The position numbers and the translations under genes are program-made. The notes below the pieces were generated by a model. It saw nothing but the letters and a program-made list of their open reading frames with translations, was not told the origin of the DNA and made no database searches. A DNA stretch of 62,989 nt from the NCBI GenBank assembly GCA_052168235.1, contig JBQLZK010000043.1, forward strand, positions 1 through 62,989. The letters run 5' to 3'. Positions 33,725 to 53,439 of this stretch are shown piece by piece. Position 1 is the first letter of the stretch, and every line of letters begins with the position of its first letter. This stretch comes from Thainema sp. (GTDB lineage Bacteria; Cyanobacteriota; Cyanobacteriia; Phormidesmidales; Phormidesmidaceae).

Positions 33725-34513
33725 TTAGGATAAATTTTCAGAAGATTCGAGTAGTCTGATTGCATATGCATCAGCTGCTATTTTCACCCAATCCGAATTG
33801 ATCCATAGTAACCAGGTAATAAGCAGAAAGAAACTTACCAGTAAACAAGCAATTGATAGTGGAGGACAGTTAGAGAATTGTAAGTTTGCGCCTGCTTGAA
33901 CTAAGCTGTCGATTTGCCAAGTTGCAAATATACTAAGTAATTCAATTTTATAAACGCACTGTGCTCCAATAAAAAACACACCTATAGATGAAGTTATAAT
34001 TCCAAGGGATTTCATTCCCAGCAAATTTCGTCGAAAACCATAATTGCAATTCTCTTCATAAATCAGGAAAAATTTGCTATGGTCGCGTGTCTTGGAAAGT
34101 AAAAATTGAGTACACGTATCGTATATTTGATCTGCTAAATCTGGATTAGCTAATTCTTCGCTTTCATTTGGCATAGGCTGCTTTGTCAAAGCAAATAACT
34201 TTCTGTGTTGGCGAGCCAAATTTATTTTATTTCGTGTATTACGGTATCGTAGGAAGGAGGTTGTAGGTTTCCCTCCCCAAACAGTGTACAATTCCTCTTC
34301 CTTAGCTTTACCCATATCACGAGCAAGTTGTGCCAAGAGCTTGAGTATTCCGAACCAAGCAAGCAAACTGACTACTCCCCCCCATGACCAAACATGATTT
34401 GGGAAAAATGCAATGATAGTCAATGCGATCGGCAAACTAACAAGTAATGCAGGTGCTAGTCTAGCCTTGCGGTTATAATCATCAAAATTCTTTTCAATAA
34501 AATCTATAACCAT
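33725..34513 (-). CDS. Multi-TM membrane protein, third gene of the MBL/E2-E1-JAB operon
   Basis: Two TM pairs around WGGKPTT and ENCNYGFRRN; AGGAG RBS before 34513. Confidence 0.75.
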   Translation of the reverse strand: MVIDFIEKNFDDYNRKARLAPALLVSLPIALTIIAFFPNHVWSWGGVVSLLAWFGILKLLAQLARDMGKAKEEELYTVWGGKPTTSFLRYRNTRNKINLARQHRKLFALTKQPMPNESEELANPDLADQIYDTCTQFLLSKTRDHSKFFLIYEENCNYGFRRNLLGMKSLGIITSSIGVFFIGAQCVYKIELLSIFATWQIDSLVQAGANLQFSNCPPLSIACLLVSFFLLITWLLWINSDWVKIAADAYAIRLLESSENLS

Positions 34514-34517
34514 ATGT

Positions 34518-36773
34518 TTACTCCTGTATTTGTCGTATTGACCATGTTTCCTGATTTTCACCAACAATGAGCATTACACCTGGCAGTCCATCACGATTGA
34601 GAATCTCAGCAAGATAGCTTAAGAGGCTGATATCATATCCACTCGGTCTAGCTGAGATTCCTGGTGGATGAGAATGCCATTCACCAATGTAGGACACAAT
34701 ATTAGCTGTCCGTGCTTTCGCCATTTTGATCTGTTCCTCAAGACCCTGAACGCCGCGTATAAATCCACTTGAATCTGCTGCACTATCTAAGGGAGCAGAG
34801 AGGATATCGACCACGAAGATTGACTGTAATTTTTGATCAAAATAGCCGAGTAAAACTCCGCCCGTTTCATTTGGAAGATTAGCAGCACGAATTTGCCTAG
34901 CCTTATCCTGCAAGCGAGCGTTCCATACAATGTTCCAACCATTAGCAGCCACAGTTAGGGTTGCAGCCACAGATACTGTGTGAACATTAATTGCCCCAGA
35001 TAGCTGCTCAACATGCCATACCGAGATTACAGCATCGGGGTACTCACATCTGAGCCTAACCTGCCCTGCAAGTGTTGCAGCATGAAGCTGAAGAAGCTCG
35101 ACTGGTATCACACTTGATACATCACGACATCCTGCACCAACCCAAAGATGTCCTTGATGTCCATGCAGATGTTGCTTACCCCAAACATTATTCAAGATGG
35201 CCTCGTAATACTGTGCCTCCAGTCCATCTAATCGCACATTGCGGTCTGAATCTTCTAGAAGTAAAACAGAGCCATGCCCAGAAGGAGTTAGAAAAACAGA
35301 TGCTGATCGCTTAAGGCTCTTAATCGCTAGATCACGCGGCACTGCAAGCGTAGTTGTTGCATCAACTACTAAATCTGCACTTTCAACAGCATTCTTTAAG
35401 TCTGCATTTGACCAATTAGTCACACTATCGACAATCGCAGAAGCTTTTGCATAGCCGTCAAAATAGGTTTCCTCTACTGTTTGTTTGACTGCATTTGCTT
35501 TAAACTGACCAACCTGAAAATGTTTAGCTGTATGTCGGGCTAAATTATGCGGCTTGATGTAATCGGGATCAACAAACATCCAGGTGCCCCACGCCTCTCG
35601 ATACCAAATATCGGCAAGACTACTACCAAGTGCTCCAACACCTGCAAGAACACCAGAGAAATCAGCAGTTTCCGTAGGAATACCCGAAGCCCGTCGTGCA
35701 GTTTCATGAGTGAGAGAGAATACGATCTCTATCGGTTCAACGTCAATAGAGCGCCAAGCATCATTAGAACTCAAATCTTCGCCAAAAGTAGGAATATTGT
35801 AGTAGTTACCATCTGTGCCATCTATTAGCACACCGCATGCTTCACCTAAATTCCCAAGATTAACGTTGAGATAGAAAGCTTTGTATTCATTTCGCTCTAC
35901 AACACTATCGCCACTTCGTTGAACAGGTATCTGAAAAATAAGAAGTGTTTTACTATCAGATACCTTTGGAGTTCCTTCTCCATCCACGCTGTGCTTAATC
36001 TCAGCACAAAGTAAATCGAATAGATTAGTGCCTCGCGCTGAAAATTGCTTGTCAAGTGTTCCTAAATCATATGGAAAAGGTTCAATAAAACCGTGAGCTA
36101 CTGGTTGAAGAGAAATAGCGAGACAGTTTAACTCTATCTGAATATTCTTTTTCTTAGATGCTTGTAAAAAGTATCCTAAAAAGACTCTATCCTCTACTCT
36201 TTTGAGCGTCAGGAACAATTCAGTATCCTGAATTTTTTCGTCAAAATTTGGAGGTAGGATAATCTCGAAGAGACTACGAAAATAGAACGGTTCAACTGGT
36301 TGATCTTCACGATGTAAAGTGCCTCTAGCGGTTTCAGAAAGCCACCATAATACTCGGTTAAGATGGCTTTGAGGAGTCCAAGAACGTTGCACTACTTCCC
36401 AGGGTTCAAAATAAAGGCATAATGACGCAGGTTCATCCTTCCTAACAAGGTTTTGGTGTAAGGTCACGGGGAAATTTTTTCGCAACGCTCGTACCTCAGG
36501 CATTTTGGTTTCTTCAGCACTGAAGATTAATCCAATACGCTCTTGATAGAGAATACCAATTCCGTTTTTGGTAGGAACACCATCATTAGTGCAATCAACA
36601 ACGAGCATTTCCGCAGTGCGTTGCCCGTCGTGAACAAAACATCTTAGCTCAATAAGCTCAAAAAATTTATGGGTAGAACAAACTCTAAAAACCCGACGCG
36701 AGATTGGTATAGTTAAAGCATCTTCAGTGAGTTCAGGAATTAATTCACCAAAGTTGGTATATATTTCTACCAT
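34518..36773 (-). CDS. E2-E1(ThiF)-JAB fusion (Cap2-Cap3-like)
   Basis: E2 LCLY; ThiF GVGALGS, DPDYIKPHNLARH and GAGCR; JAB ETGG and GEWHSHP..S..D. Confidence 0.9.
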   Translation of the reverse strand: MVEIYTNFGELIPELTEDALTIPISRRVFRVCSTHKFFELIELRCFVHDGQRTAEMLVVDCTNDGVPTKNGIGILYQERIGLIFSAEETKMPEVRALRKNFPVTLHQNLVRKDEPASLCLYFEPWEVVQRSWTPQSHLNRVLWWLSETARGTLHREDQPVEPFYFRSLFEIILPPNFDEKIQDTELFLTLKRVEDRVFLGYFLQASKKKNIQIELNCLAISLQPVAHGFIEPFPYDLGTLDKQFSARGTNLFDLLCAEIKHSVDGEGTPKVSDSKTLLIFQIPVQRSGDSVVERNEYKAFYLNVNLGNLGEACGVLIDGTDGNYYNIPTFGEDLSSNDAWRSIDVEPIEIVFSLTHETARRASGIPTETADFSGVLAGVGALGSSLADIWYREAWGTWMFVDPDYIKPHNLARHTAKHFQVGQFKANAVKQTVEETYFDGYAKASAIVDSVTNWSNADLKNAVESADLVVDATTTLAVPRDLAIKSLKRSASVFLTPSGHGSVLLLEDSDRNVRLDGLEAQYYEAILNNVWGKQHLHGHQGHLWVGAGCRDVSSVIPVELLQLHAATLAGQVRLRCEYPDAVISVWHVEQLSGAINVHTVSVAATLTVAANGWNIVWNARLQDKARQIRAANLPNETGGVLLGYFDQKLQSIFVVDILSAPLDSAADSSGFIRGVQGLEEQIKMAKARTANIVSYIGEWHSHPPGISARPSGYDISLLSYLAEILNRDGLPGVMLIVGENQETWSIRQIQE

Positions 36774-37913
36774 CTAGCCTGCCCTTGGTGTTGGAGAAGA
36801 AACAATAATGTTAATTCCAGAATTTCCAGTCATATTCAAACCGACTCCTGCGCTAGTGATATCAAACTCCAAAGGCTGTGGCTTTTGTTCGCTAGGTTCT
36901 TCCATAGTAACAACGAATCTTCGTCCACCAATCTGCTTCAAGTACCGTTCATAGCATTTTCTTGCTTGGATATGCGGTGGAAGTCCCTGTTGGTAGGCAT
37001 CCTTAGTATCAGGGATTGGTTTGCTTGAACTTACAATGTAAGCTCCTGATTGACCGTACATGAGCAGTTCTTCCACTAGAGGAAGAGGAATTGTTTCTTT
37101 CTCACCTTTGTCAGAATTTAGAGCATGATGGCTACAATGATGAGGAATGTTAAACAAATGCCATTTCAATCTATCTTCATTTTTGTGCTCTTTAGTAGTG
37201 TGTACAATATCCTGAAGCACGTCACAGGTTGAGTCTCCAACAGCAAGGTAGTTTGTTTGAATACCCGCAACCTCAAAACGAACCTGGAAAATAAGCGAGG
37301 CATCATTCCGTAAGTCATCTCCCTCATCGACATGCTTGATAAATGGGGAATGACAGAAAAATTCAACGCCATCATTCTCAAGAGAAAATCCTGGAACTGT
37401 TTTTCCAGCATTAACAATTAGCTCAAGACGTGACTCCACAGTCAAGCCATTTTTCTCAAGCCAACTTTTTAGCATTTTAGGTTTTGAGAAAACCTTAATA
37501 CCCTTACCTTTTAGAAGACGATGTCGGGCTTCTTGTCGCCAAAGGACAAACTCAGCTTTTGCTTTCCACTGCTCTGTTGTAGATGTTTCCAGTATCATAG
37601 CGGCTGGGACCCACAACTCATTCACTTTGATTCGTCCATCGCCTTGATATGTAGGATCGTGCCATAGCTCAAAGAACTCGGTACTGTGCAAGATGTGGTC
37701 TAAATCTGCATGAGTAAAAGCTAAAACATCGAAGTAGTCGCGTTTTGCTTCCGCAAGTTCGCTATGTAGTTGGCTTTTGAGATCAATAACAGGATCATCC
37801 TCATTCTCCCCACGATTCAAATGGCGAAAGTCGAACAATAGGCGCTTACCATTGCTTAAAATAATTTGGCTCGTATCACCATTTTGCGCTGGATAGAAAA
37901 TAACTTTGTGCAT
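36774..37913 (-). CDS. Metallo-beta-lactamase-fold hydrolase ending in Gly
   Basis: NGD, THADLDH, GD and PHHCS motifs; C-terminus TPRAG. Confidence 0.88.
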   Translation of the reverse strand: MHKVIFYPAQNGDTSQIILSNGKRLLFDFRHLNRGENEDDPVIDLKSQLHSELAEAKRDYFDVLAFTHADLDHILHSTEFFELWHDPTYQGDGRIKVNELWVPAAMILETSTTEQWKAKAEFVLWRQEARHRLLKGKGIKVFSKPKMLKSWLEKNGLTVESRLELIVNAGKTVPGFSLENDGVEFFCHSPFIKHVDEGDDLRNDASLIFQVRFEVAGIQTNYLAVGDSTCDVLQDIVHTTKEHKNEDRLKWHLFNIPHHCSHHALNSDKGEKETIPLPLVEELLMYGQSGAYIVSSSKPIPDTKDAYQQGLPPHIQARKCYERYLKQIGGRRFVVTMEEPSEQKPQPLEFDITSAGVGLNMTGNSGINIIVSSPTPRAG

Positions 37914-38214
37914 TAGCAGCCTCGCTTGGTATTGAACTTGAATGAGGTTGGAATCTACTGACAGCTTTGATTTACAGATTTCTTAACTTGAGTATCTGAA
38001 GCTGAAGAACAAGGTTGTCCTTGTGAGCTATCTTTACAAATCTACGAAATGTAGGCTTATTCACTGACACACAGCAGATATTGATCTCCAGCATTATCCT
38101 GAAATCCCTTGTTGAGACAGTGATACAATTGAATAAGCAAAAAAAGATTTTGAGAAAGCAGGCTACTTACACGTATGTTAGCGATATTTTTTGAAAAGTG
38201 CAAGTGTAATTGAA

Positions 38215-39060
38215 ATGGTTCGTAAAAAGGAAACAATTACGCTTTCCATCCCACCTGGAACTAAAGAGCAGTTAGAGGCTCTGGCCTATGACTTAGGTAT
38301 TATGTGGGGCGATAAGCCTAGTATTTCAGGGCTAATCACGGCGATCGCCCAACGCCAACTTGAGATTAGAAGTGTAATTACACTTGACTCAAGTCAAAAT
38401 ACTGCAATCAGACAAGCTATAAAACTCTTAGTTGACTCCGGTCGTATTGCCGATGCACAGACTTTAGCCCTTTTCCTCCTAGAACATGGCAATTTAGAGA
38501 CACCTTTACGCCAATCTCTGCTAGAACAAGTTAGTCATCCTACTGAATCATGGCGTAGAGTCATTGACCAACAACTTAAAGCTAAACAGCCTTTTCACCT
38601 GTTTTATGAAGACTCTCAGAACGAACAGATGGAGTTTACCGTTCGCTATGGCGAAATTCGCTTTTGGGAAAAGCGATTCTATCTAGAAGCTTGGTGTGAA
38701 GAAACGCAAGGTAGCTTAAATCTACCTGAACTAATCCATAATCGCTGTTTTCGGTTAGATAGAATTATCAACGTCCTGCCAGCAAGTGGTGATTGGCAAG
38801 ATCAACTTGAGTATATCGAAGTGCAATTAAAAGTATTGGGAAGGTTAGTAAAAGCTTATGAACCTAAACCAGATGATATATCCAATGAGGTAAAGGGCAG
38901 TGCCCGCTACATAGTTAGACGTGTGTCAAATACATTCTGGTTTATTCGAGAGATCTTACGTTATGGGGAAGAATGTCTGGTTTTATCTCCTGCAAGCGTG
39001 CAAAATCAATTAATAAATAAATTGAAGAAGCTTTGTGAGCACTACGAGTTTTCACCATAA
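38215..39060 (+). CDS. RHH-WYL transcriptional regulator
   Basis: ITLSI..WGDKPSIS N-terminus; YLEAWCEE, HNRCFRLDRI and FWFIREILRYG motifs. Confidence 0.9.
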   Translation: MVRKKETITLSIPPGTKEQLEALAYDLGIMWGDKPSISGLITAIAQRQLEIRSVITLDSSQNTAIRQAIKLLVDSGRIADAQTLALFLLEHGNLETPLRQSLLEQVSHPTESWRRVIDQQLKAKQPFHLFYEDSQNEQMEFTVRYGEIRFWEKRFYLEAWCEETQGSLNLPELIHNRCFRLDRIINVLPASGDWQDQLEYIEVQLKVLGRLVKAYEPKPDDISNEVKGSARYIVRRVSNTFWFIREILRYGEECLVLSPASVQNQLINKLKKLCEHYEFSP

Positions 39061-44950: not shown

Positions 44951-46618
44951 ATGAGTAACCAACGAGAATGGCAGGACAATTTAGCTCTTGGGCAAAATCA
45001 AGTTTTTGAACCTGATCAAAACTATCGAACAAAGGATGAAGATAATAGAACGCTGTTTAACACAGCCACGTTTACTCACGACTATAAACTAGCGCAGGCT
45101 TATGCTAGTGTACGAGTTCTTGAATATCGAGGAGAAGGAGATTTAAAGGTTGAATCCTTTGATGATTATTTAGCTCCTCGCGCCGCTGCTTTAAGAGCAC
45201 GATTCCAATCGATAGAGCATCCTCGCCCGACATTTCCCAGTGATGAAGCCTACCTCAATATGAGAACTCGGCACCACTATCCTTGCGGAGAGGTTTTAAT
45301 CATTGTTGATCAAGCAATTTATGATGCAGTCAGTAAGAGTATTCAACAGTATGTTTTAGACATCGGTCGGGAAGGATACTGGGCTAGTATCTATTCAGTT
45401 AGCGGTGGAGGGCCGCAAGATGTTCGAGGCTTTATTCAACAACATTCCTGTGTTGGGGCTCTACTAATCGGTGCAATTCCAGCACCTTGGTTTGAGCTAG
45501 ATAATGACTTCCATGATCAAAAAACGAGCTTCCCCTGTGATTTATATTATATGGATCGCAATGCTACCTGGAGTGATCCAGATGGTAATGGTAAGTTCAA
45601 TAGTGTCAGTGGTCATGTCGATCCAGAGATTTGGGTAGGGCGGTTATGGACGCCTACTGCTAACGGTAATGATCCGGTCATGATTAATAACTATTTTACC
45701 CGCAATCATGATTTCAGATTGGGCAACCTAGGTCATGCTAATTCTGCTCTAGCTTTTGTAGATGATGACTGGCAAGGTTTCCATGATTGTGCATTTGATG
45801 AACAGTTTTCGTCATCTGCCATTACGACTTACACCAATCCCGACACAACTGATGCTGATTTATACAAAGCCGAAGTAAATTCTCTGCGTTCATGGGTACA
45901 ACTATGTGCTCATTCCTGGACGTATGGACATGCTTTACACGTTCCAGCAGAAAACAAAGATGAATATATTCAAAACAGCTACTTTAAGGATATTAATCCA
46001 CCCAATGCTCACTTCTATAACCTTTTTTGCTGTGGACCAGGTCGCTATACCTCTAGTGATTATTTGGCAGGTTGGTATATTTTTGACAAAGCAGGAGGTG
46101 GCAAAAATCACGGTTTAACCGCTATTGCCAGCGCGAAGTCTGGATCAATGCTCATGTTTGAGGATTTTTATCGTCCTTTAGGACAAGGAGCAGATATTGG
46201 TACCGCTTATCGTCAATGGTGGCAGGCACGAGGGCCATCCCATGATTTGAATGAGCAGCGATGGCATTACGGCATGGTTCTACTCGGTGACCCGACTTTA
46301 ACGTGGTCTAAGGGAGCCGTTCCGACGCTCGAACAGCCAGAAAATGAGAGCGTCTTTGATCATTGGCCCAGAAAGATGCAGTTTCGCTGGTCTCCCGTCA
46401 ACCTACCGAATGTAAAATATCACGTTCAGATTGATTACTTTACCGGGAACTGGGCAGAAGAAACGGGTCGCTCCTGCTTTAATTATCACGATGTTGCGGA
46501 TAACTCGTTAGACTTCAATTTTGTAGGTATGCAGCGGGGACGCTGGCGAGTTCGGGCCAAGGTTAATAACACTTTCTGTAGGTGGTCTCCCTGGTCTTAT
46601 TTCCGCTTTACAGTGTAA
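44951..46618 (+). CDS. Gingipain/C25-like (clan CD) protease with C-terminal beta-sandwich domain
   Basis: CDLYYMD, PEIWVGRL, AH...FCC dyad and VLLGDPTL; GAGG RBS; no signal peptide. Confidence 0.7.
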   Translation: MSNQREWQDNLALGQNQVFEPDQNYRTKDEDNRTLFNTATFTHDYKLAQAYASVRVLEYRGEGDLKVESFDDYLAPRAAALRARFQSIEHPRPTFPSDEAYLNMRTRHHYPCGEVLIIVDQAIYDAVSKSIQQYVLDIGREGYWASIYSVSGGGPQDVRGFIQQHSCVGALLIGAIPAPWFELDNDFHDQKTSFPCDLYYMDRNATWSDPDGNGKFNSVSGHVDPEIWVGRLWTPTANGNDPVMINNYFTRNHDFRLGNLGHANSALAFVDDDWQGFHDCAFDEQFSSSAITTYTNPDTTDADLYKAEVNSLRSWVQLCAHSWTYGHALHVPAENKDEYIQNSYFKDINPPNAHFYNLFCCGPGRYTSSDYLAGWYIFDKAGGGKNHGLTAIASAKSGSMLMFEDFYRPLGQGADIGTAYRQWWQARGPSHDLNEQRWHYGMVLLGDPTLTWSKGAVPTLEQPENESVFDHWPRKMQFRWSPVNLPNVKYHVQIDYFTGNWAEETGRSCFNYHDVADNSLDFNFVGMQRGRWRVRAKVNNTFCRWSPWSYFRFTV

Positions 46619-46736: not shown

Positions 46737-46816
46737 GGCGTTGCTTAATCTGGGTATGAATTGTGATGTGGGGGCGGTGCCTCCACATCACAATTCATAC
46801 TTAAAATCAGCAATCC
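46737..46816. mobile_element. Palindromic MITE-like element
   Basis: GGCGTTGCT..GTATGAATTGTGATGTGG / CCACATCACAATTCATAC..AGCAATCC. Confidence 0.65.
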
Positions 46817-46848
46817 CTTCAGATTTATTGCAAAATTGTCATAATGCT

Positions 46849-46959: not shown

Positions 46960-47544
46960 ATGTTAGAGCAACCCAAACAGCAGCAAATGCTAACGATTTA
47001 TCTTCAAGAATACAGCAAGCTGAAGGATGAACAGTCTGCTCGAATTGGCTTTCGAGATAATTTGCTCTACGTAACGCTTGGCCTGTTTGGTGGAATTTTG
47101 ACCTTTAGCTTAGGCGAAACGTTAAACCCCTATGCACTTTTAGTTTTACCGTGGGTCAGTCTTATTTTGGGCTGGACATATCTTGTCAATGATCAGAAGA
47201 TTACGGCCATTGGCCGCTACTTACGGTACGGACTAGTCGATAAAGTTCATGCCTTGATTGGTGATGCTGGCCTTGAATCGATCTTTGGTTGGGAGATCGT
47301 CCACAGAAGCGATTTACGACGACAGCGACGAAAACTGGAACAGTTGGTCGTTGATGAGGTGACGTTTGTTCTATCTGGGATCATTGGATTAGTTGTTTTT
47401 GGCTATTTTCTGCATCAGCCATCTTCACTTAATCCTCAGTTGCCGATGATGGCCATTGTATTGCTGATGGGAGTTGAACTCGGTCTGCTGATCATTTTAG
47501 GCATCGAAATTTTTCTGTATGCAGATCTGGCTAAAGGACGCTAG
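46960..47544 (+). CDS. 4-TM membrane protein
   Basis: AGGAGG RBS; EYSKLKDEQSARIGFRDN followed by hydrophobic helices. Confidence 0.8.
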   Translation: MLEQPKQQQMLTIYLQEYSKLKDEQSARIGFRDNLLYVTLGLFGGILTFSLGETLNPYALLVLPWVSLILGWTYLVNDQKITAIGRYLRYGLVDKVHALIGDAGLESIFGWEIVHRSDLRRQRRKLEQLVVDEVTFVLSGIIGLVVFGYFLHQPSSLNPQLPMMAIVLLMGVELGLLIILGIEIFLYADLAKGR

Positions 47545-47558
47545 AGGGAGACGGAATT

Positions 47559-49460
47559 ATGGATCCCCTAATTGATTTTGCGATCGCAACGGCTATCGAA
47601 ATTGAACGACGAGCAGTTTGCCAGATCTTTCAGATAACCGATGACGATCGGGTGTTTGAAGGTTCGCGGGTCTACTGGCGCAAGTCTGTAGCACTGAAAG
47701 ATGGTGAATTCTATGAAGTTGTCGTTGTTCAGTCGCCTGATATGGGCGGAGTCGATTCTGCGCTGCTGATATCCGATACGATTCACCACTGGAATCCAGG
47801 GGCCATTTTGCTGGTTGGAATCGCGGCGGGTGTTGATCGCGCTAAACAGCAATTGGGTGATCTGATAATTGGTCGAGATATCTGTTATTACGAGCGCGGC
47901 AAGCTCACTCCAGAGGGAAAACAGCCTGAGCCAATTATGTATCGGGCTGATTCAACGTTGTGGAGTCGTGTGCAGGCCATTTCGGCTTGGCGTCCCCCGC
48001 CAACCTTGCCCAGACCCGATGGCACATCAGCAGAGCCCAAAATTCACTATAGTGCGATCGCATCTGGTGAAAAGGTAATTGCAGATCCGACAATTCGAGA
48101 TGAAATTACCAGTGGGCACCGCAAGATTGCCGCAATTGAAATGGAAGGCTATGGATTTAGTGCGGCGGCTTGGCAAAGTTTTGATCATATTCGCAGTCTG
48201 GTCATTAAAGCAGTTTGTGATTTTGCTGACACAGAAAAAAGCGATGACTGGCATCTGTATGCAGCCACCGTTGCTGCTAGCTTTGCGTACCATTTTTTAC
48301 AGGATCGACCGCTAGAGCCACGTAATGCCCCTCATCGGTCACCTCCAGCACCTAGTCAATATAAACCTATCATTAATCAATTAAAATTTGGCAATATTGT
48401 GCCTTTTTTGGGGCCAGGAATTAATCCAAATTTATATGTTCAGCTAGCCGCACAATTAGGTCAGTCAATTGAAGATAATCTTGTACATGATCCGAGCTGG
48501 CAGCCATCAGCAAAGCCAAATATTATTCAGCGGCTGATTGGTATGCCGTGTCAAGCTTGCTACTACTTACCCGATGAGCGACCTAAAGAATGCCCCATGC
48601 TGCTTGGTATAGAAAGAGCTCAGCACTGTCCATTATTTATTGAACAGCAGCTAGCAGTTGCCAAAATGAACCTACGCTACCTTTCACAGTACTACAAATT
48701 AACGAATAGTTTAAATACATTCTATGCTCAGTTTTATGACATATTTGAAACAACACAGGGCTCTCCAAATTCAGTTCATCGCTTCTTTGCTGAACTACCA
48801 TTTTTGATGAAGCATAAAGGCTATCCTAATCGTTATCCAGGTTTGCCCTATCAGCTAATTGTAACAACAAATTATGACAACTTGTTAGAACAGGCATTTG
48901 ATAAGATTTACCAACCTTATGACGTTATTTATTATATTGCCGATGGAGATAATCGGGGCAAATATAAGCATCGGTCTTATCAATCCGAAGTAGATGAAAT
49001 CATTGATGATCCTAAAAATTACGATGATCAACTGCCGCTTCGTAAACCGTGGGGGCGTTCGCGGGAACCTCGACCAATTATTTTGAAGCTCTATGGAACA
49101 TGGGAAAATAATTTTGTTGTAGCCGATGATCATCTGATCTATTTGGCTAGCAGTCCGATTCAAAATTTGCCGCCCAGTTTATTTAGAATTCTGTACGAGT
49201 CCAGCGCTTTATTCTTAGGATACAGCCCCAATGATTCTGACTTGCAACTGATTGTTCATCGACTTTGGCAAGATAAACCGCTGCCGGGTGGCTCGCGATT
49301 GATCCATCACTGCCAACCGGGAGAAATTGAGCAAAAAATTTGGCAAGAACAGAGAAATACAGAATTGATTGCGACTACTTGTTCACCAGAAGAATTTGTG
49401 GCTTCGTTGCGACAGGATATTGAAGATTTAGCGCCAAGAATTGCAGAATTCACCAGATGA
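47559..49460 (+). CDS. PNP/MTA-SAH nucleosidase fused to SIR2-like domain
   Basis: PNP motifs VGIAAG, IASGEK, IEMEG and CDFAD; SIR2 motifs PFLGPG, TTNYD, KLYG and FLGYS. Confidence 0.85.
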   Translation: MDPLIDFAIATAIEIERRAVCQIFQITDDDRVFEGSRVYWRKSVALKDGEFYEVVVVQSPDMGGVDSALLISDTIHHWNPGAILLVGIAAGVDRAKQQLGDLIIGRDICYYERGKLTPEGKQPEPIMYRADSTLWSRVQAISAWRPPPTLPRPDGTSAEPKIHYSAIASGEKVIADPTIRDEITSGHRKIAAIEMEGYGFSAAAWQSFDHIRSLVIKAVCDFADTEKSDDWHLYAATVAASFAYHFLQDRPLEPRNAPHRSPPAPSQYKPIINQLKFGNIVPFLGPGINPNLYVQLAAQLGQSIEDNLVHDPSWQPSAKPNIIQRLIGMPCQACYYLPDERPKECPMLLGIERAQHCPLFIEQQLAVAKMNLRYLSQYYKLTNSLNTFYAQFYDIFETTQGSPNSVHRFFAELPFLMKHKGYPNRYPGLPYQLIVTTNYDNLLEQAFDKIYQPYDVIYYIADGDNRGKYKHRSYQSEVDEIIDDPKNYDDQLPLRKPWGRSREPRPIILKLYGTWENNFVVADDHLIYLASSPIQNLPPSLFRILYESSALFLGYSPNDSDLQLIVHRLWQDKPLPGGSRLIHHCQPGEIEQKIWQEQRNTELIATTCSPEEFVASLRQDIEDLAPRIAEFTR

Positions 49461-49480
49461 CTTGGTAAGGAGTAAACGCG

Positions 49481-52400
49481 ATGACATCTAATCACAGTAT
49501 CCCCCAAGCATCTGCCAACGATAATCAGGCCAATAATCAAACTAATAATCAAACCAACAATAATGGTCTAACCGATAATAGTGCTGCTGCTGCTTCGGCT
49601 CAACCTGAAGTTTCTGCAGCATCAACTGTGCGATCGCAAACAACACAGTCGGCACAAACAACACAGTCATCACAAGCAGCACTATCAGCCACTTCATCAT
49701 TTCCTAAAAGCCCGTATAAAGGCTTAAATCCCTATGCTGCAACCGATGCAGAGCTGTTCTTTGGTCGAGCCAGGGAAACGCAGCGCATTGTCAATAATCT
49801 GTTAGCTTGGCGGTTAACTGTGCTGTATGGCGAAAGTGGCGTTGGCAAAAGCTCAGTGCTGCGAGCTGGCGTCACCCATGCGTTACAAGAAGAGGCACAG
49901 GACAATCTCGACGATTTTGGTGTGCCTAAGCTAGCCGTTGTCGTTTTTCCGCCGCTACATGGGGAGCGTTTTTGGCAGCAAGATCCGCTACAGAGTTTAG
50001 CGCAGCAAATTGACGAAGATATTCGCCAGAACTATTGGCCAGTTGAGCCACCGGAACCAGGCTTGTCATTTGTGGAGATGCTGCGAGTTTGGACAGAACG
50101 TTTAGGGGGTGAGCAGCGAGATGGTCGCCTATTCATTATTCTGGATCAGTTTGAAGAATATTTTTTGTATCATCCGCAGAATTCACAGGAGAGCGATTTA
50201 GTTACTGCGATCGCACATGTCGTTAATTTGCCTGATCTACAGGTTAACTTTTTGATTTCTCTGCGTGAAGATTCCTATGCCAAACTTGATCGGCTGAGGG
50301 GGCGTCTTCCTAACATATTGGACGTCTGCTTGCACATTGAGCATTTGGATAAACAGTCAGCCTATGATGCCATTACTAAGCCCATTGAGCGCTATAACGA
50401 GCACCAGCCACCTGCACAGAAGATCGACATATCAGCCGATTTAGTAGATGCCATTTTACAAGGCATTCCACAGATCGAAGAGTACAACAGCAACGGAAGG
50501 GCCGGGGTCGAAAAACTCAAAAATCTTCGTAAGAACCAGATTTTGGCTCCTTATCTACAGTTGGTTATGATGCGCCTTTGGGACGAGATGGTGCAAGTGC
50601 GATCGCATGATCTTAGCCTAGAGACATTAATCAATCTGGCCGAATCAGAAACTCCAGATCAAGTTACCAAAATTAGGGCTGCTATTCGTCGGCTAAAAAC
50701 ATCCATACATTGGGCAGATCAAAATGCCCGTGATCAAAATACTCACGATCAAAATACCCAGATTAAGAGAGCTGTCCGCCGAATTGTGCGTGAGCATGTC
50801 ACCACAACGATGGATGCATTATCTCAGCCGGAAAAAGATATTGCTGCCCGGAGCTTTCAATATTTAGTGACTCCATCAGGAACTAAATATGCCTATTCTG
50901 CAACAGATTTAGCCAATTTAATGGGCCGTAATCCAGAATCCGTCATTGCTTTACTAATGAAGCTCGCTCAAAATAAACGTATCATTCGTCCAGTTGGGCC
51001 TTCTCAGGAGCAACCTAATGTTCAGCGATATGAGATTTTCCACGACTTCTTAGCTCAGGCCATTCTCGGTTGGCGAAGAAACTACCTCGAAGAAAAGAAA
51101 AGAAAAAGTAGAATCCAGAAGTCTATTGTTCTAGTGGCAGGCTCCTTTGCTTGCGGTCTCTTCCTACTCAGTCTTTCTGCTTACCATTATCAACAAAGAA
51201 TTAATTGGCTGATTGCAGTGTCAAATGAGTCTATTCAGAAGTTTCATTCAGGTCAACAACTGCTCGCATTACAAGATGCAATAATAGCTGGGCAAGGAAT
51301 CAAGGAGCGCAGTGAAAATAATTTTTTAAAGTATATTTTGCTCAGCCCATCTAAAAGGACAGATGCTGTTAATTTAGCAAAAGAAAATTTGCAGAGTATC
51401 CTAACCCAAATTCAATTACAGCGTTATTATTCAGCTCCTACTGATCAAACGCTTCAGACTGTGTTAAGTCCAGATTGGCAAGTAGTTGCTGTTGTACTAG
51501 CAGATGGCTCTCTTCAGATTTGGGATCAACAAACAGGTGAACTGCTGCACACATTGCGCCAGACATCTGAGAAAACCTTAGCATTACGTTTCAGTTCTGA
51601 TAGCAAGATGTTGGCAGCTGTATTTTTAGATGGAACGATACGTCGTTGGGATTGGCAAAATGGCACTGAACTGGCTCACATCAAAACATTAGAATCACCT
51701 AATCGAGTATTGATGGCTGACTTCAGTGGGGATGGCCAAACACTAGCTGTAGCCTCAACTCATTCTGTATCTGCTGAAGATGTGACGGTGCAATTATGGG
51801 ATTGGCAAGCGGGTACTCCCTATGCTGCCATTCAGCCTTCAGGTTCTTTATCCAGCCTGAAAGTTGGTTCTGATGGACAAACCTTAGTAACGACTTCTAC
51901 TGTTTCCAACAAGACCGATCCTCTTGCTGCTGCAACATCTATCATTCAGCTCTGGAATGGCAAGACTGGTATCGAACAGGCCCAATTCGAGACCGAAAGC
52001 CGCCCCTCGAATCTAGTGTTGAACAATGATGGAAATGTCTTTGCATTTTCCACAGATGATGGCACGGTTGAGCTTTGGGATTTACAAGACAGAGAGTATT
52101 TAAAAGCATTTAAACCTTACGATTTGATTCTGAATCAAATACAGAGCCTGAGCTTTAATCCAGATGGTAGTCTTCTAGCCATTGGTTTTCAAAACGGTCA
52201 GGTTAAGTTATGGGATTGGCAAGACGACAAATTACAGAATCAAATCCAAATGTCAGAACCTGTAAATGATCTAGTTTTTGATCCAACCGGACAGCAAATC
52301 GCAACTCTCTTGAGTCGCAAACATCTTAGTTTTTGGCGTTTGCAATCTCCTGTGACAGCGATGTCAATAAACTCATTTAAAGCATTGGATCGCCTTGGCG

Positions 52401-53338
52401 AACTACGCCTTAGTCCTAATAGCGAGCAAGTCGCTGCTTTATCCTGGCTAGATGGCACGATTCAGCTTTGGAACATAGCAGATCAAAAACTATCAGCTGA
52501 GTTCAATCCAAATGGTCGGGTACAAGATTTTCACTTTAGCCCTGATGGTCAAACGCTTGTCACAGCCTCGGATGATCACTTGGTGCAGCGCTGGAATTTG
52601 CAAGGCAGTCTGATTGATCAGTTTAAGATGCCTAACAGCATAAGATCAGTCAGCTTCAGCCCTGATGGCCAACAGTTATTGACAACGTTAAATGATACTA
52701 AATTAGTGCAGGTCTGGGATTTGCAGGGTATTAAGCGAGCCCAAGTTAATCCCTCCGGTAATGTACTAGCAGCTGACTTTAGTCCTGATGGCCAGTTATT
52801 AATAACTCTCTCAGATAATGGCTCAGTCATATTGCAACTTTGGGATTTGCAGGGGAACGAGCTAGCCCAGTTCAATCCATCGGGTACTACACTAGCAGTT
52901 AACTTTAGTCCTAAAGATCAAATCTTGACAACTGCATCTGATAGCGGTTTTGTACAGTTCTGGAATTTACAAGGTCAGGAGCAAACCCGTTTCAAAGTAG
53001 CGGATGCCATTCGCACAATTAGCTATAGTCCTGATGGTCAGACTTTAGCAACCGCAACTTTCAATAATGATACTGTACAGCTCTGGAATTTGAAGGGCGA
53101 CGAACAAGGTCAATTCAAGGCACCTGGAATAGTTCTAGATTTGCAGTTTAGTATCGATGGCAAATCCCTGATCGCAACATCCCAAAATGGCTTTGTAGAG
53201 CAGTGGCAACTAAATAGCACAAGTTTAGACAGTTTAATTCATCAAGGTTGTGATTGGCTACAGCCTTATTTAGCCAGTCATCCTGATAAAGCACAGGATC
53301 TTCCTTGTCAGTTTAATACTAGTAATCTGTCAAAGTAG
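49481..53338 (+). CDS. nSTAND1-type NTPase - TM - WD40 repeat protein
   Basis: PYKGL, FFGR, GESGVGKSS and IILDQFEE; one TM; many FSPDG..LWD repeats. Confidence 0.9.
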   Translation: MTSNHSIPQASANDNQANNQTNNQTNNNGLTDNSAAAASAQPEVSAASTVRSQTTQSAQTTQSSQAALSATSSFPKSPYKGLNPYAATDAELFFGRARETQRIVNNLLAWRLTVLYGESGVGKSSVLRAGVTHALQEEAQDNLDDFGVPKLAVVVFPPLHGERFWQQDPLQSLAQQIDEDIRQNYWPVEPPEPGLSFVEMLRVWTERLGGEQRDGRLFIILDQFEEYFLYHPQNSQESDLVTAIAHVVNLPDLQVNFLISLREDSYAKLDRLRGRLPNILDVCLHIEHLDKQSAYDAITKPIERYNEHQPPAQKIDISADLVDAILQGIPQIEEYNSNGRAGVEKLKNLRKNQILAPYLQLVMMRLWDEMVQVRSHDLSLETLINLAESETPDQVTKIRAAIRRLKTSIHWADQNARDQNTHDQNTQIKRAVRRIVREHVTTTMDALSQPEKDIAARSFQYLVTPSGTKYAYSATDLANLMGRNPESVIALLMKLAQNKRIIRPVGPSQEQPNVQRYEIFHDFLAQAILGWRRNYLEEKKRKSRIQKSIVLVAGSFACGLFLLSLSAYHYQQRINWLIAVSNESIQKFHSGQQLLALQDAIIAGQGIKERSENNFLKYILLSPSKRTDAVNLAKENLQSILTQIQLQRYYSAPTDQTLQTVLSPDWQVVAVVLADGSLQIWDQQTGELLHTLRQTSEKTLALRFSSDSKMLAAVFLDGTIRRWDWQNGTELAHIKTLESPNRVLMADFSGDGQTLAVASTHSVSAEDVTVQLWDWQAGTPYAAIQPSGSLSSLKVGSDGQTLVTTSTVSNKTDPLAAATSIIQLWNGKTGIEQAQFETESRPSNLVLNNDGNVFAFSTDDGTVELWDLQDREYLKAFKPYDLILNQIQSLSFNPDGSLLAIGFQNGQVKLWDWQDDKLQNQIQMSEPVNDLVFDPTGQQIATLLSRKHLSFWRLQSPVTAMSINSFKALDRLGELRLSPNSEQVAALSWLDGTIQLWNIADQKLSAEFNPNGRVQDFHFSPDGQTLVTASDDHLVQRWNLQGSLIDQFKMPNSIRSVSFSPDGQQLLTTLNDTKLVQVWDLQGIKRAQVNPSGNVLAADFSPDGQLLITLSDNGSVILQLWDLQGNELAQFNPSGTTLAVNFSPKDQILTTASDSGFVQFWNLQGQEQTRFKVADAIRTISYSPDGQTLATATFNNDTVQLWNLKGDEQGQFKAPGIVLDLQFSIDGKSLIATSQNGFVEQWQLNSTSLDSLIHQGCDWLQPYLASHPDKAQDLPCQFNTSNLSK

Positions 53339-53341
53339 AGA

Positions 53342-53404
53342 TGAGGGGTAGAAGAATTTTGAAAATATCGCGTCGCGATATTTTTAAAATTCTTCTACCC
53401 CTCA
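53342..53404. terminator. Long hairpin between convergent genes
   Basis: About 31-bp arms with one mismatch. Confidence 0.75.
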
Positions 53405-53439
53405 AAACACACTTAACAAAGCACTGATGCTAAATCTGG

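Follow-up and report, generated by a model that had tools for sequence, protein, structure and literature searches.

A compact locus in the cyanobacterium Thainema sp. raises the question as to whether a small membrane protein, an enzyme, and a large sensor encoded side by side form a single machine. The locus lies within the window analyzed here, by which we mean the whole 62,989-nucleotide (nt) stretch of contig JBQLZK010000043.1 (GenBank assembly GCA_052168235.1). It consists of three open reading frames (ORFs) on the + strand (Table 1), separated by gaps of 14 and 20 nt, with ATG codons preceded by purine-rich words that resemble ribosome-binding sites. This confirms the tight operon reported in a first-pass annotation made from the sequence alone, which read the genes as one unit akin to nucleotide-binding, leucine-rich repeat (NLR) receptors: a four-transmembrane (4TM) protein, a double effector, and a membrane-anchored sensor. 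In Pfam searches, gene 1 matched no family (its 194 amino acids [aa] are counted from the ATG; the ORF finder placed the start at TTG 46939). Gene 2 matched PNP_UDP_1 at aa 52-230 (E 9e-12) and SIR2_2 at aa 433-600 (E 4e-15), and gene 3 matched nSTAND1 (E 5e-37) and WD40 propellers. We find that the locus is two modules rather than one, a SIR2-like domain paired with nSTAND1 and a 4TM protein paired with a purine nucleoside phosphorylase (PNP)-fold enzyme. We lean toward interpreting it as a split, NLR-like conflict system, acting in immunity or cell death, that has imported an effector cassette.

The first module is defined by gene neighborhood. We collected 169 related loci: genome searches gave 7 and 3, genome contigs gave 80, and metagenomes gave 80, the window being one of these. 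The locus scans were keyed on the pattern around LIVTTNYD and undersample SIR2 copies with other residues there; a single-protein locus scan of genome contigs with SIR2 returned no matches. An nSTAND1 gene lies directly downstream of 159 of the 173 SIR2-like ORFs of at least 200 aa. Twelve of the 14 exceptions end less than 400 bp from the edge of the locus, one is a SIR2-nSTAND1 fusion, and one (L119) is unexplained. The fusion (L082:7791-11018), from an acidobacterial genome, joins an intact SIR2 to nSTAND1 in frame. Named hosts of the pair belong to Cyanobacteriota, Acidobacteriota, Actinomycetota, Chloroflexota, Planctomycetota, Myxococcota, and Gemmatimonadota. The two partners co-diverge (rho 0.71 over 109 pairs; shuffle maximum, 0.21), with the caveat that these kin are nonindependent and p-values are overstated. 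In one genome with two pairs (G033), each pair groups with its own clade. Conserved adjacency, which the first-pass annotation had expected, comes with co-divergence; this is evidence of partnership and not of contact, because operons inherited whole would yield the same signal. At some loci, other genes lie directly 3' of the STAND gene, namely cyclodipeptide synthase genes (L032, L060, L063, and L079) and GrrM/OscB radical-SAM maturases (L015, L016, and L020).

Many SIR2-like copies are fused to a second enzyme or domain: PNP, CHAT, TIR, trypsin, calcineurin-like, cyclase, kinase, ParA, or SARP. We compared their motifs in 118 of the 173 rows, after removing 41 redundant, 9 partial, and 5 open-ended ones. 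Both the GAG motif and the catalytic His are intact in 62 of 68 stand-alone copies versus 1 of 41 enzyme-fused copies. Among His-bearing copies only, GAG is kept in 62/67 stand-alone versus 1/15 fused proteins. Nine copies fall outside this comparison, namely seven long ones with no assigned partner, a fusion to SARP, and the fusion to nSTAND1; eight of the nine are intact. A quick version of the SIR2 tree indicates that replacement of His by Tyr or Phe characterizes one cyanobacterial clade (23 of 24 rows) and that GAG loss recurs separately in an actinobacterial TIR-fused clade and in a cyclase-fused clade.

The window copy carries three lesions. Its GAG has become GPG (GPGIN), the cofactor loop is deleted, and His is replaced by Tyr. 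The loop, which ends in LPSxxEL and aligns with KomC LPSWSQL, has been lost in the window's subclade; it is kept in 65/67 stand-alone His copies versus 5/17 PNP-fused copies. Tyr512 falls at the residue altered in the PDB entry named KomC(H146N). The TTNYD, the KLYG, and the Cys-rich insert noted in the first-pass annotation are all present, the last as Cys331, Cys334, Cys345, and Cys357. Among 120 proteins, all four Cys residues occur in 45 of 77 His-less copies versus 0 of 42 His-bearing copies. The insert precedes TTNYD and so is not the classical sirtuin zinc ribbon. The fold itself is kept (model pLDDT [predicted local distance difference test], 88), with KomC, ThsA, and Avs5 as its nearest relatives: Z scores were 18.8 to 9v0g, 18.3 to KomC, 17.5 to ThsA, 15.7 to 15.8 to Avs5, and 10.8 to SAMD9 (9zjr), and KomC matched the SIR2 family profile at E 1e-17. 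Compared with active immune SIR2 enzymes that hydrolyze nicotinamide adenine dinucleotide (NAD), the domain has the fold and TTNxD and lacks GAGxS, the cofactor loop, and the HG/NG motif. Because of the three lesions and the new four-Cys site, we judge that the SIR2-like domain here is very probably a noncatalytic scaffold.

A double effector, as in the first-pass annotation, would require that SIR2 still hydrolyze NAD, or bind NAD or ADP-ribose as a sensor, through a variant site beside PNP. TTNYD and GYS..D are kept, and the fold resembles KomC and ThsA at Z 17 to 19. According to the accessible text of PMC12931631, PaAvs5 has NG instead of HG and is still an active NADase; since TTNYD is also kept here, loss of His alone is no proof of inactivity. 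However, the window copy combines three lesions, Tyr or Phe would not supply the polar nitrogen that Asn retains, and the erosion has been repeated in separate enzyme-fused clades. SIR2 appears dead, and we regard a second activity as improbable. The inactive adaptor that the same annotation also proposed fares better: it is strengthened by the erosion of catalytic motifs in copies that carry a second enzyme, and the GPG change and the loop deletion had been overlooked.

The PNP domain, in contrast to the eroded SIR2 domain, is intact, as the first-pass annotation had suggested. E16, M195, E196, D221, and D224 are conserved in 20/20 PNP-SIR2 proteins and E194 is conserved in 19. The domain matches the PADLOC model of the CBASS PN effector (E 1e-27) and scores 55 against a cut-off of 169 with the housekeeping MTAN model, so the profile scores favor immune over housekeeping models. 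It shares with Cap17 a PNP fold with the catalytic Glu and Asp. In the accessible part of 10.1101/2023.01.24.525353, Cap17 and DtcC cleave ATP and dATP to adenine and ribose-5'-triphosphate, and by analogy we infer that the substrate here is an adenine nucleotide such as ATP or dATP.

Gene 3 has the layout expected of an nSTAND1 conflict system, with the effector on the upstream gene and a C-terminal WD40 repeat sensor. Its nSTAND1 (PF20703) profile match scores 129 bits against a cut-off of 27.1, Walker A and Walker B are intact in 77 and 72 of 84 relatives, respectively, and the protein begins at the NTPase without an effector of its own. An amyloid-type coupling between the STAND leader and gene 2 was considered and rejected: the leader is not conserved, and visual inspection of the gene 2 terminus showed no counterpart. 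One hydrophobic helix (aa 549-567; Kyte-Doolittle [KD] hydropathy, 2.2) separates STAND from WD40. Among the 84 partner STANDs of sufficient length for the test, a hydrophobic helix follows the module in 68, and K/R residues are more frequent before than after it in 65 of these. For these two reasons the WD40 sensor is likely outside the cytoplasm (N-in/C-out), as predicted from sequence. In a cyanobacterium, this compartment could be the periplasm or the thylakoid lumen.

The second module concerns gene 1. The single sequence gives three KD peaks above 1.6. The alignment of its family (1,175 clusters at 50% identity) has four apolar segments alternating with K/R-rich cytoplasmic parts, and the AlphaFold model of gene 1 is a four-helix bundle with long charged cytoplasmic helices. 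Residues conserved at 90% among 80 diverse members are mostly cytoplasmic (E17, K22, E24, R28, R32, D33, N77, D78, W111, E112, R121, and K125). PycTM and the CBASS 4TM protein are nucleotide-gated membrane effectors and, like this protein, are small membrane proteins whose cytoplasmic face is conserved and that adjoin a nucleotide-processing enzyme; their profiles each matched 1 of 80 members marginally (E 0.004 to 0.006) and Pfam 8xMP matched 5/80, likewise marginally, which does not establish a relation. Foldseek found no match at E <0.001 in the PDB or BFVD, and the best VIA match (Z 12) was a designed bundle; this generic helical-bundle likeness does not demonstrate a new fold. There was no match to the 4TM protein in viral contigs (locus scan) or in phage records. 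Among 8,000 longer candidates, the search for 4TM fusions gave one unconvincing 488-aa match, which is weak evidence.

The 4TM gene belongs with PNP, not with SIR2 or STAND. It is located upstream of 20/21 PNP-fused SIR2 loci versus 0/89 other SIR2 loci (loci not de-duplicated; 62 that were too short were left out). Within 1.5 kb, 17 of the 29 cyanobacterial 4TM loci have a PNP neighbor and 2 a SIR2 neighbor. A wider view of 11 of the 12 PNP-less loci added 5 with PNP, one of them with fragments only, bringing the count to 22/29; among the remaining seven, four 4TM genes are broken or truncated and one is on a 1.1-kb contig. Across 250 genomes, PNP relatives occur in 20/22 with 4TM versus 9/228 without it, counts that are lower bounds (the PF01048 search of the window's own genome gave one other gene and missed the window PNP). 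The same linkage holds on plasmids (6/6 loci viewed, of seven matches) and in actinobacteria, where 22 of 32 4TM regions from one family and a phylum sample have PNP within 5 kb. The 4TM-PNP pair resides in NB-ARC-TPR, PIN-TPR-GreAB-C, and nSTAND5 systems, in AAA systems with a SAV_2336-type protein, and in NrtR operons, with the two genes in tandem, divergent, or convergent orientation. Placing 4TM within the NLR-like unit, as the first-pass annotation did, does not hold, because 4TM follows PNP into unrelated systems. The version of that idea in which 4TM belongs to the STAND receptor as a dedicated subunit, forming one three-protein membrane complex, draws on the close spacing and shared orientation of the genes at this locus and at most PNP-SIR2 loci. 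We consider it very improbable given the 89 non-PNP SIR2-STAND loci with upstream room and no 4TM, the rarity of nearby SIR2, and divergent transcription from PNP-SIR2 at L008.

What 4TM does for PNP is harder to read. In cyanobacteria, 4TM copies and their PNP neighbors do not co-diverge (rho 0.13; shuffle maximum, 0.25; n 36), and mean identity is 58% for 4TM and 38% for PNP. The lack of co-divergence therefore hints at a small-molecule link; a basic 4TM pocket shared by very different PNPs would fit a small molecule better than a protein interface. Alternatively, 4TM may be a protector or tether that binds PNP directly, as an antitoxin or a membrane anchor, with no sensing of product. This would suit the tight linkage in every orientation, the long charged cytoplasmic helices, which in the model could bind protein, and the co-divergence of 4TM and PNP in actinobacteria (rho 0.57; n 23). 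The cyanobacterial identities and absence of co-divergence speak against it, and a stoichiometric complex would be hard to square with how often the two genes are transcribed divergently. We rate direct binding as rather unlikely.

At L302 (1150-5048), in related actinobacterial loci, and on plasmid L206, an operon encodes NrtR (NUDIX-winged helix-turn-helix), PNP, a 662-aa protein without a Pfam match, and 4TM. In L302, a short similar motif, resembling bacterial amyloid signaling, occurs both in the PNP tail and where the following protein begins. At L215 (G529:C5), a 4TM gene interrupted by an internal stop is upstream of a SIR2 and STAND-WD40 pair, with a calcineurin-like fragment and no PNP; 4TM decay following an effector swap is possible there.

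Taken together, adjacency, co-divergence, motif erosion, intact PNP residues, topology, and the 4TM-PNP linkage count for a split NLR-like system. Each activity and interaction in the following scheme, like the defense role itself, is proposed from anatomy, motifs, and gene linkage. A cue bound by WD40 propellers outside the cytoplasm, on a one-helix anchor, would trigger nucleotide exchange and oligomerization of the cytoplasmic nSTAND1 module. Having no effector, the STAND protein would recruit the upstream gene product through the SIR2-like domain, to which it is genomically coupled. Ancestrally an NADase effector, that domain would have lost its active site here and become an oligomerizing scaffold for swappable enzymes. 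Clustering may then activate PNP, which, with its catalytic residues in place and by the precedent of Cap17 and DtcC, would convert ATP, dATP, or a related adenine nucleotide to adenine and ribose-5'-triphosphate. The 4TM protein, which would have arrived with PNP, most likely handles the PNP product at the cytoplasmic face rather than binding STAND. It may be a ligand-gated membrane effector or an exporter, and this is the weakest step.

Several observations weigh against this scheme. Inter-protein covariation between SIR2 and STAND, measured by mutual information over 109 paired rows (89 effective), reached a top z of 4.6 versus 4.7 to 4.8 in shuffles. The 16 of 84 partner STANDs without a helix indicate that membrane anchoring is optional, so that the anchored STAND with external WD40 proposed in the first-pass annotation stands as a common arrangement and not as an obligatory one. 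A terminal Cys pair occurs in 42/53 anchored versus 8/16 unanchored complete WD40 forms (p 0.03), a weak link. PADLOC, which recognized the PNP domain, has no model for STAND or 4TM. Of 137 flanking ORFs collected from cyanobacterial loci, 68 were scanned; none was a defense family over the cut-off, and most were housekeeping. The retained TTNYD, the active PaAvs5, and the actinobacterial 4TM-PNP co-divergence count on the same side.

Some of these points would also suit a system that is not antiphage at all but a trans-envelope signaling or programmed-death switch, one that responds to competitors, to damage to the envelope, or to developmental cues in bacteria that form filaments or live in soil. 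Its sensor is predicted outside the cytoplasm, its neighbors are largely housekeeping genes, regulators or signaling enzymes (SARP, cyclase, and kinase) occur among the fusion partners, and putative secreted proteases flank the window locus. We nevertheless hold it unlikely: the effector set overlaps the known conflict repertoire (accessible part of PMC8195603), PNP is nearer to immune than to housekeeping models, and the spread is patchy, with 4/61 and 4/401 genomes positive with the window query.

Table 1. Features of the three-gene locus, in window coordinates
Feature	Position	Strand
Gene 1: 4TM protein, family without a name, 194 aa; both ends predicted cytoplasmic; genomic partner of immune-type PNP genes	46960..47544	+
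Gene 2 (633 aa)	47559..49460	+
PNP/MTA-SAH-nucleosidase-fold effector domain; E16, E194-M195-E196, D221 intact	47559..48308	+
SIR2-like domain (KomC/ThsA/Avs5 fold), probably noncatalytic scaffold	48345..49433	+
Eroded NAD-binding segment: GAG to GPG; ~20-residue loop ending LPSxxEL deleted	48402..48446	+
Four-Cys insert C331-x2-C334-x10-C345-x11-C357, candidate zinc site, only in His-less copies	48549..48629	+
TTNYD motif (aa 436-440), kept	48864..48878	+
KLYG (aa 510-513); Tyr512 at KomC His146 position	49086..49097	+
Gene 3 (1,285 aa)	49481..53338	+
N/Q/S/T/A-rich low-complexity STAND leader; no effector domain; not conserved in relatives	49481..49705	+
nSTAND1 NTPase module, Walker A GESGVGKS, Walker B IILDQFEE	49712..51085	+
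Single predicted transmembrane helix after K/R-rich stretch	51125..51181	+
~14 WD40 repeats (two propellers), predicted outside cytoplasm; 12 W-x endings by pattern, 2 by eye	51458..53224	+
C-terminal Cys pair C1257, C1276, candidate disulfide	53249..53308	+

All three genes are single copy in their own genome, except for distant STAND paralogs of gene 3, and the closest named relatives of the encoded proteins are cyanobacterial. Promoter and terminator counts at the locus are at chance level only, DNA contigs from four sequencing runs span it only as short pieces, and no RNA run containing it was listed. Near-perfect hairpins flank the operon at 46737-46818 and 53319-53423 (stems of ~25 and 28 bp) and recur in the genome as 58 and 31 BLAST pieces (palindromes counted twice). 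They may be like repetitive extragenic palindromic elements or miniature inverted-repeat transposable elements, possibly terminators. The locus is also flanked by putative secreted proteins (a clostripain, an M6 peptidase with P-domains, and a DUF6345 protein) and by a 555-aa ORF at 44951-46618 without assignment. At 33725-39060, the - strand encodes a metallo-beta-lactamase-fold protein, a fused E2-E1-JAB protein, and a membrane protein, with a divergent WYL gene, a candidate ubiquitin-like defense operon 8 to 13 kb upstream. GC content from 32000 to 58000 is mostly 0.41 to 0.46, versus ~0.50 to 0.55 in much of the rest of the window, with the exception of housekeeping genes near 39 to 43 kb.

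The locus is a variant of predicted nSTAND1 conflict systems (PF20703). In the accessible part of supplement 1 of Kaur, Iyer, Burroughs, and Aravind 2021 (PMC8195603), these include nSTAND1+TM+BetaPropeller proteins, some of them effector-less with an upstream effector gene (TIR+DrHyd), an arrangement shared with the locus here. None of the eight occurrences of "SIR2" in that part is directly upstream of nSTAND1, and "PNPase+nSTAND1" occurs 0 times. It does list TM+TM+TM+TM genes without a name beside PNPase+bDLD3, which we liken to the 4TM family by description and not by sequence. The accessible main text discusses neither a SIR2 adaptor nor a 4TM-PNP link. The accessible portions of 10.1101/2022.07.19.500537, 10.1101/2023.09.22.558884, 10.64898/2026.10.19.760177, and PMC12803255 describe neither the SIR2-nSTAND1 nor the 4TM-PNP pairing, and the wider literature searched likewise holds no description of either, although closed supplements may hold one.

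In its proposed working, the locus resembles SAMD9 or Avs5 divided between two genes, but it belongs to neither. Human SAMD9/9L (tRNase, noncatalytic SIR2, STAND, and TPR) likewise carries its effector on a lid-less SIR2-like domain beside STAND, and in the accessible text of PMC13600222 SIR2/SIR2 contacts are needed to activate the attached nuclease. SAMD9/9L, however, is one cytosolic chain with a TPR/OB sensor, whereas here there are two genes, a membrane helix, a WD40 sensor, and a PNP effector; the single-chain AlbA2-SIR2-STAND-TPR-OB content of that family is absent, and the resemblance appears to be a likeness of logic. Avs5 (AVAST type 5; SIR2-STAND-TPR) also places SIR2 under STAND control, but in the accessible part of PMC12931631 it is a single chain with an active NADase and a TPR sensor and no mention of a transmembrane helix, in contrast to two genes and WD40 here. 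PADLOC Avs profiles matched nothing at the locus, including gene 3. Kongming KomC, Thoeris ThsA, and DSR2 NADases, the closest solved SIR2 relatives, retain three features that the window copy has lost: GAG, the LPSW loop, and His, as the alignment shows for KomC. Cap17 and Detocs DtcC share a PNP-fold immune effector with an intact catalytic Asp; in the accessible part of 10.1101/2023.01.24.525353 they are activated by a cyclic oligonucleotide or a phosphorelay and no 4TM partner is mentioned, whereas a 4TM gene accompanies the enzyme here. Of all parts of the locus, we expected the 4TM-PNP cassette least.

With intact and eroded natural versions of one SIR2 partner of a single STAND family, the transition of an NADase to the scaffold state known from human SAMD9 becomes testable. 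The locus also suggests that NLR-like sensing may take place across a bacterial membrane, and it identifies a conserved membrane protein as a partner of ATP-nucleosidase effectors, prompting the question of whether their product is a messenger. A bolder idea, offered tentatively and with more doubt than belief, is that immune PNPs of filament-forming cyanobacteria and actinobacteria do more than drain ATP and act as signal makers, their product being read by a widespread 4TM protein that kills the cell or releases the cue to neighboring cells. In the window, this cassette would be attached to an NLR that spans the membrane, by way of a SIR2 fold repeatedly made into a death-domain-like adaptor. 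If true, ribose-5'-triphosphate or a relative would be a messenger, and the SIR2 adaptor would be a bacterial parallel of SAMD9.

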